From Escherichia coli (GTDB lineage Bacteria; Pseudomonadota; Gammaproteobacteria; Enterobacterales; Enterobacteriaceae): 64,000 bases of DNA. Under the pieces are notes generated by a model. It saw only the letters and a list, made by a program, of their open reading frames with translations. It was not told the DNA's origin and did no database searches. The translations under genes were made by a program, and so were the position numbers. The stretch lies in the NCBI RefSeq assembly GCF_017348835.2, contig NZ_CP071375.1. One strand, written 5' to 3'. Positions within the stretch are counted from its first letter, which is position 1. Each line of letters begins with the position of its first letter. Positions 12,950 through 16,730 of this stretch are shown here, one piece after another.

Positions 12950-14302
12950 ATGACTAAACACTATGATTACATCGCCATCGGCGGCGGCAGCGGCGGTATC
13001 GCCTCCATCAACCGCGCGGCTATGTACGGCCAGAAATGCGCGCTGATTGAAGCCAAAGAGCTGGGCGGCACCTGCGTGAATGTTGGCTGCGTGCCGAAAA
13101 AAGTGATGTGGCACGCGGCGCAAATCCGTGAAGCGATCCATATGTACGGCCCGGATTATGGTTTTGATACCACTATCAATAAATTCAACTGGGAAACGTT
13201 GATCGCCAGCCGTACCGCCTATATCGACCGTATTCATACTTCCTATGAAAACGTGCTCGGTAAAAATAACGTTGATGTAATCAAAGGCTTTGCCCGCTTC
13301 GTTGATGCCAAAACGCTGGAGGTAAACGGCGAAACCATCACGGCCGATCATATTCTGATCGCCACAGGCGGTCGCCCGAGCCACCCGGATATTCCGGGCG
13401 TGGAATACGGTATTGATTCCGATGGTTTCTTTGCCCTTCCTGCTTTGCCAGAGCGCGTGGCGGTTGTTGGTGCGGGTTACATCGCCGTTGAACTGGCGGG
13501 CGTGATTAACGGCCTCGGCGCGAAAACGCATCTGTTTGTGCGTAAACATGCGCCGCTGCGCAGCTTCGACCCGATGATCTCTGAAACGCTGGTCGAAGTG
13601 ATGAACGCCGAAGGCCCGCAGTTGCACACCAACGCCATCCCGAAAGCGGTAGTGAAAAATGCCGATGGTAGCCTGACGCTGGAGCTGGAAGATGGTCGCG
13701 GTGAAACGGTGGATTGCCTGATTTGGGCGATTGGTCGCGAGCCTGCCAATGACAACATCAACCTCGAAGCCGCTGGCGTTAAAACCAACGAAAAAGGCTA
13801 TATCGTCGTCGATAAATATCAAAACACCAACGTTGAAGGTATTTACGCAGTGGGTGATAACACGGGTGCAGTGGAACTGACACCGGTAGCAGTTGCAGCG
13901 GGTCGCCGTCTCTCTGAACGCCTGTTTAATAACAAGCCGGATGAGCATCTGGATTACAGCAACATTCCGACCGTGGTCTTCAGCCATCCGCCGATTGGTA
14001 CTGTTGGTTTAACGGAACCGCAGGCGCGCGAGCAGTACGGCGACGATCAGGTGAAAGTGTATAAATCCTCTTTCACCGCGATGTATACCGCCGTCACCAC
14101 TCACCGCCAGCCGTGCCGCATGAAGCTGGTATGCGTTGGACCGGAAGAGAAGATTGTCGGTATTCACGGCATTGGCTTTGGTATGGACGAAATGTTGCAG
14201 GGCTTCGCGGTGGCGCTGAAGATGGGTGCAACCAAAAAAGACTTCGACAATACCGTCGCCATTCACCCAACGGCGGCAGAAGAGTTCGTGACAATGCGTT
14301 AA
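12950..14302 (+). CDS. gor: glutathione reductase
   Basis: 450-aa [30 protein letters not shown]...[13 protein letters not shown] (redox-active disulfide motif). Confidence 0.95.
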
Positions 14303-14309
14303 ATGTTAA

Positions 14310-14339
14310 AGGGCTAAGAGTAGTGTGCTCTTAGCCCTT
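14310..14339. terminator. bidirectional terminator between gor and dinQ
   Basis: gggctaagag...ctcttagccc palindrome immediately after the gor stop. Confidence 0.6.
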
Positions 14340-14355
14340 AATTACGTTTCCGCTA

Positions 14356-14439
14356 TCAGTTCAGAAGCTGAAGCAGAAAGCGGATCAGTTCCAGCAGCGC
14401 AATTAACGCCCCAAGAACGATGATTGCTTTATCAATCAC
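14356..14439 (-). CDS. dinQ: DinQ type I toxin peptide (27 aa, GTG start)
   Basis: Minus-strand translation gtg att gat aaa gca atc atc gtt ctt ggg gcg tta att gcg ctg ctg gaa ctg atc cgc ttt ctg ctt cag ctt ctg aac tga gives (M)IDKAIIVLGALIALLELIRFLLQLLN, matching recalled DinQ. Confidence 0.8.
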   Translation of the reverse strand: MIDKAIIVLGALIALLELIRFLLQLLN

Positions 14440-14632
14440 CCGTTTTCTCCATGCGATGGAGTGAGAATGCATCCGCTTACTCATCCACTGCCTGTCACGG
14501 CGCATGTCTCATTGTTAGATAAGAACTCTCTCACTCCGGCCAGAGCATCAGTTAACGGCACCACCCGTACTTCTGACCAGGACTTTGAAAGCGTTTATGC
14601 GCATTACCAGAGTGAAAATGCCTCAGAGCTAA

Positions 14633-14648
14633 CTGGATAATCATACAG
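14633..14648. promoter_or_regulatory. LexA box (CTG-N10-CAG) in the dinQ promoter
   Basis: ctggataatcatacag matches the SOS box consensus CTGT-N8-ACAG closely; located upstream of dinQ on its strand. Confidence 0.65.
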
Positions 14649-14677
14649 TACATTCAGGTTATAAAACCAGCATGTCC

Positions 14678-15773
14678 TGTGTAAGTTCACAGAGATATTG
14701 CAATTGCCTCCGGATAAGTAAGGGGAGATTGCACTATGCAAATGCAGCATCTGATGGTTGGCTATCCTAAGTACTACCAAACGGCCGATTATGCGTTGAG
14801 GCTTTCAGTGATGGCTGATATAGCAACAATGAGAATGAAGGCTCTGCACTTCTGGGATAAACACGGTATTTCTGCAGCTTCTGAAGCCTTTGGCGTGTCC
14901 TGCCGCACGCTTTACTGGTGGCGTCAGTTACTGAACAAGGAAGGACCTGAGGGGCTAATCCCGCACAGTAAGGCACCTCTGGTGCGACGAAAAAAACACT
15001 GGCATCCCGATGTGCTGAAAGAGATTCGACGCCTCAGGACAGAGCTGCCGAACCTCGGTAAAGAGCAGATTTTTGTTCGCCTGAAGCCCTGGTGCGAACA
15101 GCGCTATCTGGCCTGTCCGAGTGTTTCCACCATCGGCAGAATGATCGCTGCCGCACATGATAAAATGCGGATGATACCTGTGCGTCTGGGATCGCGGGGG
15201 AAGGCACTGCTTGTCAAAAAGCGGTCTGCCAAACCCCGCAGGCCAAAGCACTACCGCCCGGTAAAGACAGGTGAGCTCATTGGGATGGACGCCATTGAGC
15301 TCAGAATGGGCGAACTGCGTCGCTATGTCATCACCATGATCGACGAATGCAGCAATTACGCGCTGGCGCTGGCTGTGCCGTCACTCAACAGTGATATCGT
15401 CAATCACTTCTTCAGCCGCGCAGCCCGGTTGTTCCCGGTCGGTATCAGCCAGATAATCACAGATAACGGAAAAGAGTTCCTGGGAAACTTCGACAAAACG
15501 CTGCAGGAAGCCGCTATCAAACACCTCTGGACCTATCCCTACACGCCAAAAATGAACGCTATCTGTGAACGTTTTAACCGGACGTTAAGAGAGCAGTTTA
15601 TTGAATTTAATGAGATTTTACTCTTTGAAGATCTGGCGCTATTTAACCAGAAGCTGGCGGAATATCTGGTGCTGTATAACAGCAAAAGACCCCACAAGGC
15701 GCTCGCACTAATGACGCCCGTGGAATATATTTTAAAAGAGAATAAAAATTGCAATATGTGGTGGACCCATACA
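14678..15773 (+). mobile_element. insertion sequence, single-ORF DDE (rve) transposase, IS481-family-like, about 1.1 kb
   Basis: Imperfect ~28-bp terminal inverted repeats (left tgtgtaagttcacagagatattgcaatt; right reverse complement tgtatgggtccaccacatattgcaatt) flanked by a 5-bp direct repeat tgtcc (14673-14677 and 15774-15778). Boundaries are uncertain by a few bp. Confidence 0.6.
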
Positions 15774-15818
15774 TGTCCTTGCAATAGTTTCAGTATGGTA
15801 TTAGCATTGATGCGTTAG
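14736..15818 (+). CDS. DDE-type transposase (integrase core domain; N-terminal HTH)
   Basis: 360-aa ORF with HTH (GVSCRTLYWWRQ) and catalytic residues consistent with D (GMDAIE), D (ITDNGKEF) and E (ICERFNRTL) about 36 aa later; the ORF reads 45 nt past the inferred right end of the element. Confidence 0.7.
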   Translation: MQMQHLMVGYPKYYQTADYALRLSVMADIATMRMKALHFWDKHGISAASEAFGVSCRTLYWWRQLLNKEGPEGLIPHSKAPLVRRKKHWHPDVLKEIRRLRTELPNLGKEQIFVRLKPWCEQRYLACPSVSTIGRMIAAAHDKMRMIPVRLGSRGKALLVKKRSAKPRRPKHYRPVKTGELIGMDAIELRMGELRRYVITMIDECSNYALALAVPSLNSDIVNHFFSRAARLFPVGISQIITDNGKEFLGNFDKTLQEAAIKHLWTYPYTPKMNAICERFNRTLREQFIEFNEILLFEDLALFNQKLAEYLVLYNSKRPHKALALMTPVEYILKENKNCNMWWTHTCPCNSFSMVLALMR

Positions 15819-15895
15819 ATGATGGCATTCTCACTCCAGCCAGAGCCACCAACTCTGGGCTGCAAAGTAAAAAACCGACGCAAAGTCGGTTTTTT
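15812..15895 (+). ncRNA. agrA: agrA-like small RNA (repeat copy with intrinsic terminator)
   Basis: Shares the gttagat...ctcactccagccagagccaccaactc...aaaaaccgacgcaaagtcggttttttt core with the downstream copy; candidate -35 ttgcaa (15779-15784) and -10 tagcat (15802-15807) with 17-bp spacer. Confidence 0.6.
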
Positions 15896-16042
15896 TACAT
15901 CCGGATTCGGACAAGGCTTAATATGACGATGACCCAGTGAAAGTATATAAATCGTCACTGCGATATATACCGAAGTGCCCCCTCCGCCAGCTGAAGAAAT
16001 CGCTAATTCTTGCAATGTTAGCCACTGGCTAATAGTATTGAG

Positions 16043-16127
16043 CTGTTAGATAAGAGCTCTCTCACTCCAGCCAGAGCCACCAACTCAGGGCTGGAAAGTA
16101 AAAAACCGACGCAAAGTCGGTTTTTTT
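16043..16127 (+). ncRNA. agrB: agrB-like small RNA (antisense regulator of dinQ)
   Basis: Second tandem copy; -35 ttgcaa (16010-16015), 17-bp spacer, -10 tagtat (16033-16038); about 33 nt (gttagataagagctctctcactccagccagagc) complementary to the dinQ leader copy at about 14510-14542; ends in hairpin + T7. Confidence 0.65.
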
Positions 16128-16161
16128 ACGTCCTGATTCAGACCTCCTTTCAAATGAATAG

Positions 16162-16241
16162 CCAACTCAAAATTCACACCTATTACCTTCCTCTGCACCT
16201 ACGCATTCGTTAAACCATATATGTTTTTGACTTATCCGCTT
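16162..16241 (+). promoter_or_regulatory. ars promoter/ArsR operator remnant (retains -35 TTGACT), downstream part replaced
   Basis: ccaactcaaaattcacacctattaccttcctctgcacctacgcattcgttaaaccatatatgtttttgacttatccgctt closely matches the K-12 Pars region as I recall it; similarity ends after ccgctt. Confidence 0.55.
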
Positions 16242-16242
16242 T

Positions 16243-16292
16243 GGTTTGTAACGCTGGCTGCGCTGGCGCTACGTCTCTCTTTCACTTTGTAA
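16243..16292 (+). pseudogene. arsB: arsB 3'-terminal remnant (last ~16 codons, ...FVTLAALALRLSFTL*)
   Basis: In-frame reading of ggtttgtaacgctggctgcgctggcgctacgtctctctttcactttgtaa ends in a stop 12 nt before the arsC ATG, the expected arsB-arsC arrangement; no arsR or arsB body precedes it. Confidence 0.5.
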
Positions 16293-16304
16293 TGAGATAC
16301 TGAT

Positions 16305-16730
16305 ATGAGCAACATTACCATTTATCACAACCCAGCCTGCGGCACATCGCGTAATACGCTGGAGATGATCCGCAACAGCGGTACAGAACCGACCATTATC
16401 CATTATCTGGAAACACCACCAACGCGCGATGAACTGGTAAAACTCATTGCCGATATGGGGATTACCGTACGCGCGCTGCTGCGTAAAAACGTCGAGCCGT
16501 ATGAGGAACTGGGCCTTGCGGAAGATAAATTTACTGACGAGCGGTTAATCGACTTTATGCTTCAGCACCCGATTCTGATTAACCGTCCGATTGTGGTGAC
16601 GCCGCTGGGAACTCGCCTATGCCGCCCCTCGGAAGTGGTGCTGGAAATTCTGCCAGATGCGCAAAAAGGCGCGTTCTCCAAGGAAGATGGCGAGAAAGTG
16701 GTTGATGAAGCGGGTAAGCGGTTGAAATAA
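16305..16730 (+). CDS. arsC: arsenate reductase (glutaredoxin-coupled ArsC)
   Basis: 141-aa ORF MSNITIYHNPACGTSRNTLEMIRNSG... with catalytic Cys12 context (HNPACGTSRN). Confidence 0.95.
   Translation: MSNITIYHNPACGTSRNTLEMIRNSGTEPTIIHYLETPPTRDELVKLIADMGITVRALLRKNVEPYEELGLAEDKFTDERLIDFMLQHPILINRPIVVTPLGTRLCRPSEVVLEILPDAQKGAFSKEDGEKVVDEAGKRLK

Follow-up and report, generated by a model that had tools for sequence, protein, structure and literature searches.

We analysed a 64,000-nucleotide stretch of Escherichia coli DNA (contig NZ_CP071375.1 of assembly GCF_017348835.2; the whole stretch is called the window below), in which an ISKpn28-like insertion sequence (IS) of the IS481 family separates the divergent promoters of dinQ, the gene of a small toxin, and agrA, a small RNA (sRNA) gene. 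The element very probably arrived by an ordinary site-specific route, directly upstream of the sigma-70 promoter of agrA. Copies at other sites nearly always follow one rule, in which the right end of the IS is followed by a 5-bp duplication, the hexamer TTGnnn, about 17 bp and the hexamer TAnnnT, with the promoter pointing away from the IS. Its placement 5 bp upstream of the agrA -35 hexamer thus appears to reflect the normal target rule of this IS group, and not a peculiarity of the locus. Taken singly, an intergenic IS is routine, and the transposase here is already assigned to the IS481 family in public annotation; the interest lies in the target rule, which picks out the upstream edge of a sigma-70 promoter with nucleotide exactness. 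Literature searches returned no account of a link between the IS481 family and hok/sok, toxin-antitoxin (TA) systems of type I or promoter or -35 targeting and, as far as we found, the promoter-directed target rule is undescribed.

The element and its junctions are arranged as follows (position, strand, feature, basis).

14673..14677, left copy of the target-site duplication (TSD), TGTCC; empty-site comparison
14678..15773, + strand, IS481-family IS, ISKpn28-like, 1096 bp
14678..14705, + strand, left inverted repeat (IRL), starting with TGT: TGTGTAAGTTCACAGAGATATTGCAATT
14736..15818, + strand, transposase open reading frame (ORF), 360 aa, the only long ORF of the IS; translation, identical to WP_001178364.1 of strain PE164
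15747..15773, + strand, right inverted repeat (IRR), closing with ACA and encoding the final transposase residues ...NMWWTHT
15774..15778, right copy of the TSD, TGTCC; empty-site comparison
15779..15807, + strand, core promoter of agrA, TTGCAA-17 bp-TAGCAT, intact and serving the IS as target motif; position of the agrA 5' end, motif at other sites

The IS occurs once in the window. Its terminal repeats (28 and 27 bp) are imperfect: they align with a single 1-nt gap and agree at 21 of 28 positions, and an 11-bp core, ATATTGCAATT, is perfect in both. The tips read TGTGTAAG... on the left and ...CCCATACA on the right, the last bases of the block being AATTGCAATATGTGGTGGACCCATACA. Both the length of 1096 bp and the TGT...ACA ends agree with the IS481 family (about 1-1.3 kb, with such ends). 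The reconstructed empty site was found in 4,593 of 5,426 complete E. coli genomes (at least 80% coverage). It takes the form ...AAAACCAGCA(T/C)GTCC TTGCAATAG..., K-12 and strain 042 reading ...AAAACCAGCACGTCC-TTGCAATAG.... Window positions 14200-16300 are 100% identical to pig strains PE164 and F2_81, and the almost isogenic pig strain YZ22PE67 carries the window's own allele, ...CCAGCATGTCCTTGCAAT..., with TGTCC only once. Because this empty allele has a single TGTCC, the 5-bp TSD is established, and the 1.1-kb block is a genuine insertion with a 5-bp target duplication. That the 1.1 kb might be ancestral here and lost from other strains is scarcely tenable: the precise empty site in 4,593 genomes, with the 5 bp in single copy, already refutes it, and the block is a multi-copy mobile element bearing inverted repeats.

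A first-pass annotation of this DNA had described an IS481-like element of about 1.1 kb with imperfect inverted repeats of about 28 bp and a 5-bp tgtcc duplication, ending 5 bp upstream of the agrA -35 hexamer. The comparison with uninterrupted dinQ-agrA regions (K-12, 042 and YZ22PE67) bore out the duplication, the length of 1096 bp and the 21 matches in 28 positions agree with the description of the element and its repeats, and TTGCAA does stand directly after the right-hand TGTCC. The family was likewise well chosen, since three sources concur. The transposase scored 221.4 bits against NCBIfam transpos_IS481 (residues 33-331), slightly below the curated cut-off of 224, with 98 bits for the next family, IS3; Pfam placed HTH_23, HTH_28 and HTH_32 at residues 32-136 and rve and rve_3 at residues 179-328; and PGAP labels the identical PE164 protein, WP_001178364.1, 'IS481 family transposase'.

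The IS lies on both chromosomes and plasmids, at 1,927 places in 1,419 of the 5,426 complete E. coli genomes, and its multiple identical copies at different sites are evidence of mobility. Among named relatives the nearest are Klebsiella transposases labelled 'IS481-like element ISKpn28 family', which share about 80% amino acid identity with it, and DNA identity to ISKpn28 was about 75% in a crude global alignment. Given that ISfinder assigns elements to one IS species at 95% or more nucleotide or 98% or more amino acid identity to the reference, the element is by its sequence a relative of ISKpn28, apparently a separate E. coli isoform or species and not the same IS. ISKpn28 (Klebsiella pneumoniae, about 1100 bp) shares the termini, TGTGTAAGTTCAC... 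and ...GGTGGACCCATACA, and its published inner repeat core (PMC6101004) is identical to that of the window IS, ATATTGCAATT. It is of similar size, and likewise has a lone HTH and rve transposase without an internal stop; its copies, too, make a 5-bp duplication, are placed before TTGnnn-17-TAnnnT and often lie beside hok genes. It differs in its transposase, which is only about 80% identical. Three papers on ISKpn28 present it as a disrupter of mgrB or a neighbour of anti-CRISPR genes, and give no target rule (PMC6101004, PMC5343135, PMC12248084).

The target motif in E. coli, metagenomes and distant relatives

Eight E. coli copies were chosen arbitrarily, as the first-listed 100% matches, and all eight follow TTGnnn-17-TAnnnT with a spacer of exactly 17 bp. 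They occupy five sites, given here as duplication, slash, -35-like hexamer, spacer length and -10-like hexamer.

CTGTG/TTGTAA-17-TATTCT, ldr/rdl site
TCTCC/TTGCCT-17-TAACCT, hokD site (two genomes)
CTGTG/TTGATT-17-TAACCT, hokA site (three genomes)
GCTGT/TTGAAT-17-TATAAT, dinQ paralogue between ybbP and mnmH, E2348/69
ATCTC/TTGACT-17-TAACAT, inside a gene for an Ig-like-domain protein

A 5-bp duplication was seen at 20 other distinct sites as well. At all sites that follow the rule, the promoter runs in the direction of the transposase gene. Megablast hits in other genomes ran a few bases into similar flanks beside Hok genes, and it was because the IS matches extended into these shared Hok-adjacent flanks that sites were collected more widely. 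Metagenome contigs were scanned by exact match to the right end of the IS, which gave 120 stretches that were sorted by flank. Seven of nine independent, duplication-verified target classes had TTG at +6..+8 (background 1.5%, p = 6e-12), and in five of those seven a -10-like hexamer followed after 16-18 bp (background 4.8%, p = 5e-6). Flanks lacking TTG were mostly without a duplication and so belong to rearranged copies. A logo of 15 independent sites carried information at T0, T1 and G2 and at T23, A24 and T28, with TTG strongest, while the duplication and the left flank carried almost none. When an 18-nt right-end pattern was run against genome contigs, seven matches were returned, six of them by chance in unrelated metagenome-assembled genomes and one real, at a sok-like site (L137).

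Six metagenome contigs (L017, L066, L073, L106, L121 and L124) showed a hok-type left flank with an unrelated right flank and no duplication. Such mismatched flanks suggest that, at hok/sok loci, copies of the IS have recombined with one another or deletions have arisen next to them.

The agrA site itself has been struck repeatedly. An IS at dinQ/agrA was present in only 7 of the 5,426 E. coli genomes, in one orientation throughout. In strain IAL7255 both copies of the duplication read CGTCC, as in the K-12 allele, against TGTCC in the window; EC12 and 377323_2f have TGTCC and flanks about 3% divergent from those of the window, and their IS is 100% identical. Since the duplications differ and the flanks diverge around an identical IS, these sequences show at least three independent insertions at the same agrA nucleotide. 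One further carrier, Z1323CEC0015 (L007), has no duplication: its left junction reads ...CCAGCA/TGTCTAAG... and its right junction ...CATACA/CTTGCAAT, about 9-10 nt are missing at the junctions and the transposase gene is frameshifted. These aberrant junctions could be an assembly error or a later deletion.

The rule extends beyond the E. coli element. Two ISKpn28 sites, both beside HOK_GEF genes, read TCTCC/TTGCCT-17-TATCCT and CCTCC/TTGCAA-17-CATACT. In relatives whose transposases are 43-56% identical, the tips TGTATAAGTTCA... and ...GGTGGAC(C/G)CATACA are conserved, and the ends of these distant elements were located by means of the conserved tips TGTATAAGTTCA and GGACCCATACA. Five of six such relatives, including members of other phyla, obey the rule.

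GAGCC/TTGAAC-17-TAATCT, Acidithiobacillus caldus (L153), upstream of trx-rho
CAATC/TTGACG-16-TATAAT, L154, upstream of xseB
TTTTA/TTGCCT-17-TACAAT, L155
AACTC/TTGACG-17-TACCCT, L156
TTGCCA-18-TATAAT, L158
TGGACT, L157, the exception

The next downstream gene was co-directional in all five chromosomal cases among them. From these comparisons the target rule appears to be old and widespread.

Type I toxin genes and the open-ended transposase gene

Seven of the eight arbitrarily chosen E. coli copies adjoin an annotated type I toxin gene (hokA, hokD, ldr or the dinQ paralogue), and so do the copies at the iap-cysH hok locus and at a plasmid hok locus, two ISKpn28 copies and the IS of the window. 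The toxin gene lies on the opposite strand, on the IRL side, and it is the antitoxin RNA (Sok, Rdl, AgrA or an Agr-like RNA) whose promoter is struck. At hok and ldr loci the insertion point falls within the toxin transcription unit, and the toxin ORF is severed from its own promoter; dinQ is not severed in this way, because its transcript does not extend to agrA. One specific element thus interrupts or flanks Hok, Ldr and DinQ loci recurrently. FlmC, we presume, is the mok-equivalent gene of the hok/sok-type flm locus of the F plasmid. In published surveys 80.6% of ISKpn28 insertions were intergenic (PMC5343135) and ISKpn28 co-localised with FlmC in plasmid leading regions (PMC12248084); neither study links the placement of ISKpn28 to promoter or toxin-antitoxin targeting, and the target rule would account both for the mostly intergenic position and for the co-occurrence with flm/hok.

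Other insertion sequences occupy type I TA loci too. Pedersen and Gerdes are reported to have described, in 1999, that the K-12 loci hokA, hokC and hokE contain IS150 and IS186, which apparently inactivate hok. These belong to other IS families and reportedly sit at various positions near hok, none of them fixed relative to the Sok promoter.

The E2348/69 site between ybbP and mnmH (L142) has a further dinQ-like gene, whose 52-aa toxin product is annotated as DinQ. It is accompanied by an Agr-like RNA with 87.7% identity to agrB over the promoter and 5' part, with the same IS 5 bp upstream of TTGAAT-17-TATAAT, and the insertion is present in several O127:H6 genomes. In two metagenome contigs (L100 and L022) the IS lies 5 bp upstream of TTGAAA-17-TAAATT, immediately before a match to the Rfam small RNA STnc100. 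The RNA at this match has paired 5' and 3' ends (GGTGTGGTG...CACCACACC) and a short ORF, at a locus outside the E. coli core genome, and is reminiscent of a type I toxin mRNA. Rfam matches to OxyS, STnc540 and tRNA in some loci lay far from the IS and were set aside as unrelated.

The transposase gene of the element is open-ended. It has 346 codons within the IS, the last being the terminal three bases, ACA, and there is no stop codon inside the IS. In the window the ORF reads 14 codons further, through the duplication and the agrA promoter, to a TAG at 15816-15818, 2 nt into agrA. Because the ORF is open-ended, a complete transposase mRNA must traverse the agrA promoter, and the agrA terminator is the first on its way. 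The read-out from the transposase gene into agrA that had been proposed for this locus is accordingly predicted to be built into the element.

The length of the product depends on the promoter struck. With a TTGAnn hexamer, the 5-bp duplication and the first T make two codons, after which an in-frame TGA closes a protein of 348 aa. As a TTGA -35 supplies this TGA two codons past the end of the IS, 348-aa products are modal: this is the commonest length in the homologue list, and annotation gives it for the distant relatives as well as for the hokA, dinQ-paralogue and Ig-like sites. Where the hexamer is TTGC, as at agrA and most sok promoters, the ORF runs on, and database proteins with identical cores span 348-573 aa. 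Among them are chimeric 'transposases' of 353-573 aa that carry Pfam domains of neighbouring genes (H-NS, UmuC/IMS_C, BcsB, Hpt, PilP and Tn3 transposase), and PGAP flags many copies as 'incomplete; missing C-terminus'. These chimeric and incomplete entries are annotation artefacts of this IS group, the chimeras arising because the ORF is open-ended; the target rule accounts for their variable length.

IS481 proper and its relatives in actinobacteria are likewise known to take the stop codon from the target: their transposase ORF closes at the TAG of an NCTAGN target (PMC2516522, PMC6794481). IS481 proper, ISLxc2 and ISRe46 have DDE transposases of the same family, TGT...ACA ends and a stop from the duplicated target, as here. 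They duplicate 6 bp, NCTAGN, whereas the group of the window IS duplicates 5 bp of any sequence and stops at the TGA of a TTGA -35 outside the duplication, unlike the TAG within NCTAGN; and its target is a promoter-shaped motif, that of IS481 proper a palindromic tetranucleotide. Membership of the IS481-proper subgroup was not borne out, in that the duplications are variable, of 5 bp and without CTAG; the 6-bp NCTAGN target defines that subgroup and not the family.

Explanations for the target motif

In the mechanism we propose, a sigma-70 promoter (TTGnnn, about 17 bp, TAnnnT) would receive a 5-bp staggered cut that directly precedes its -35, and the element would insert with its right end, where the transposase gene ends, facing that promoter, here the one of agrA. 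Sigma-70 holoenzyme on a strong, constantly occupied promoter may guide the transpososome to about -36/-41. Constitutive promoters of antitoxin RNAs (Sok, Rdl, AgrA) dominate among the observed targets, presumably as they are strong and always occupied and as insertion there may be harmless or disable a toxin. The habit could be kept by a 'safe haven' gain, in which promoter and downstream gene stay intact, transcription is co-directional, and the stop, often together with a terminator, is borrowed. The holoenzyme model is advanced because sigma-70 reads exactly these informative bases (TTG, TA...T) and this 17-bp spacing, and that the motif is read in this manner strikes us as nearly an even prospect. 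A wider version, in which a widespread IS481 subgroup (ISKpn28, the E. coli element, and the relatives in Acidithiobacillus and elsewhere) uses the holoenzyme as selector, has co-evolved the TTGA stop and in enterobacteria prefers antitoxin promoters, is put forward more tentatively.

Guided by transcription factors, the yeast retrotransposons Ty3 and Tf1 integrate where Pol III starts transcription or at promoters of Pol II. They resemble the group of the window IS in their fixed position at the upstream edge of a promoter, with promoter and gene spared; they differ in being eukaryotic retroelements whose tethers were shown experimentally, while a sigma-70 tether is here only inferred. If true, the rule would represent a new target-selection mode for bacterial DDE transposons, possibly tethered to RNA polymerase, and, should the holoenzyme indeed be the reader, a bacterial counterpart of Ty3/Tf1 promoter targeting. 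Insertions could then serve as markers of active promoters, notably those of unannotated small RNAs.

Several points weigh against this interpretation. Three sites with a clean duplication depart from the rule, having TGTCAA (L117), TTTTCT (L038) and TGGACT (L157). The sample of sites is enriched in multi-copy hok/sok homologues, and natural insertion sites have already been filtered by selection. That RNA polymerase takes part is inferred from what the consensus looks like. An ISKpn28 insertion obtained under colistin selection lies within the mgrB ORF at +91 (PMC6101004), a position that may or may not fit the rule. Finally, the agrB promoter (16005-16038, AATTC/TTGCAA-17-TAGTAT) fits the motif, and the IS was found there in 0 of the 5,426 genomes; counter-selection or an additional target requirement are possible reasons for this avoidance.

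The transposase might instead read, by itself, a bipartite motif that coincides with the sigma-70 consensus, for example through the HTH that binds TTGCAA or TTGGCA of the repeats. Both repeats do contain a -35-like hexamer about 20 bp from the tip, within ATATTGCAATT in the E. coli element and ISKpn28 and within TTTGGCAC in the distant relatives, and TTG is the strongest part of the target logo; moreover, transposases of the IS3 and IS30 types target sequences like their own ends. The geometry differs, however, since in the repeats about 20 bp separate the hexamer from the tip, and in the target only 5 bp separate it from the joint. Nothing in the repeats corresponds to the -10-like TAnnnT with its fixed 17-bp spacing, and the informative positions match those of sigma-70 one for one, so that we regard an unaided transposase as rather unlikely. 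A different view holds that insertion is near-random and that selection leaves the copies upstream of promoters or beside dispensable toxins. Natural sites are selection-filtered, an insertion that severs hok from its promoter should be neutral or beneficial, and IS150 and IS186 are, as noted above, reported in hok loci of K-12. Set against this are the single-nucleotide precision, with the duplication abutting the first T of the hexamer, the constant orientation, the identical agrA nucleotide struck at least three times, and the copy inside the Ig-like-domain gene at an internal TTGACT-17-TAACAT, which together make selection alone very improbable. For the dinQ/agrA insertion in particular, selection for changed DinQ regulation, through LexA or UP-element control of dinQ or through more or less AgrA, might be invoked, as the IS abuts a probable second LexA operator and the dinQ -35 region, arose independently in several lineages, and occurs in three of seven carriers together with loss of the AgrB-type antisense segment. 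It is present in only 7 of 5,426 genomes, however, target specificity alone accounts for its recurrence, and in the window agrB and every core element are intact; we hold this explanation to be improbable. Insertion directed to the upstream edge of a sigma-70 promoter is the reading we prefer.

Three further ideas were tried and dropped. The target is no mimic of the IS ends, the agrA flank being only patchily like IRL and the sok flanks not at all. No -35/-10 pair with workable spacing spans the IRR-IRL junction, which disposes of a circle-junction promoter. Nor does the IS bring its own promoter, as every empty site already has the agrA promoter as a native feature and different insertion sites have different promoters.

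The dinQ-agrAB locus around the insertion

The remaining features of the locus are listed as above.

14356..14439, - strand, dinQ coding sequence, 27-aa toxin VIDKAIIVLGALIALLELIRFLLQLLN, intact; PGAP of the identical PE164 region, translation
14514..14546, - strand, dinQ mRNA segment complementary to AgrA/AgrB ('agrAB repeat'); direct repeat family D1, Weel-Sneve 2013
14631..14650, no strand, main (strong) dinQ LexA operator AACTGGATAATCATACAGTA, CTG-N10-CAG, intact; read from the sequence
14653..14672, no strand, probable second, weak LexA operator and dinQ -35 region TTCAGGTTATAAAACCAGCA; CAG-N10-CAG pattern, text of PMC3567139
15815..15898, + strand, agrA sRNA; Rfam RF02891, 100.3 bits, K-12 annotation
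15869-15895, + strand, agrA terminator hairpin; hairpin prediction
16010..16038, + strand, agrB core promoter TTGCAA-17 bp-TAGTAT, untouched
16046..16129, + strand, agrB sRNA, main DinQ antitoxin, intact; Rfam RF02891, 108.1 bits

The DinQ protein of the window is identical to WP_001295215.1. Both RF02891 matches exceed the gathering score, and AgrB is the main antitoxin against DinQ (PMC3567139). The agrA -35 hexamer TTGCAA (15779-15784) abuts the right-hand TGTCC and is followed by the 17-bp spacer and TAGCAT (15802-15807). A generic promoter and terminator scan missed the agrA and agrB signals at its thresholds and was not used. Compared with the K-12 locus (Weel-Sneve 2013), dinQ, the LexA operator, agrA, agrB and the terminators are all here and nearly identical; the divergent -35 edges, about 5 bp apart in K-12, have 1.1 kb of IS between them in the window.

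The statement of the first-pass annotation that both divergent core promoters are intact holds, for the dinQ/LexA side and TTGCAA-17-TAGCAT are retained. Its distance of about 30 bp from the dinQ LexA box to the IS stands for the strong box (14631-14650, with its CTG-N10-CAG core at 14633-14648), which ends 27 bp before the IS and lies 139 nt upstream of the 49-aa ORF, in agreement with PMC3567139. What it overlooked is a probable second site: Weel-Sneve et al. described a second, weak LexA operator near the first, and the dinQ -35/-10 overlaps both (PMC3567139). This operator most likely corresponds to 14653-14672, the sole candidate, one base short of the duplication. Because the probable second operator ends 1 nt before the duplication, the IS would be much nearer the dinQ promoter than 30 bp.

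The effect of the IS on expression of DinQ and AgrA is probably mild, a small effect being expected because all core signals (dinQ, both LexA sites and agrA) and agrB are intact. The IS might change the upstream (UP-element) context of the two promoters or interfere with the weak LexA operator, and transposase read-through transcripts might carry AgrA sequence and end at the agrA terminator.

Three of the seven carriers of the dinQ/agrA insertion (EC12, 377323_2f and FWSEC0007) have a single agr gene with an agrA-type 5' and an agrB-type 3' flank. This agrA/agrB hybrid, the product of a 231-bp deletion, has lost the fully complementary AgrB antisense segment.

Unlike the K-12 locus, the strain of the window has a deletion of arsR and arsB downstream of agrB. 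At about 16242-16304 the sequence downstream of agrB joins the last 60 or so nucleotides of arsB, arsR and nearly all of arsB being deleted, and arsC follows the arsB remnant at 16305-16730. K-12 and 042 carry arsR here, together with arsB or arsDA, and EC12 and 377323_2f have arsC straight after the agr region.

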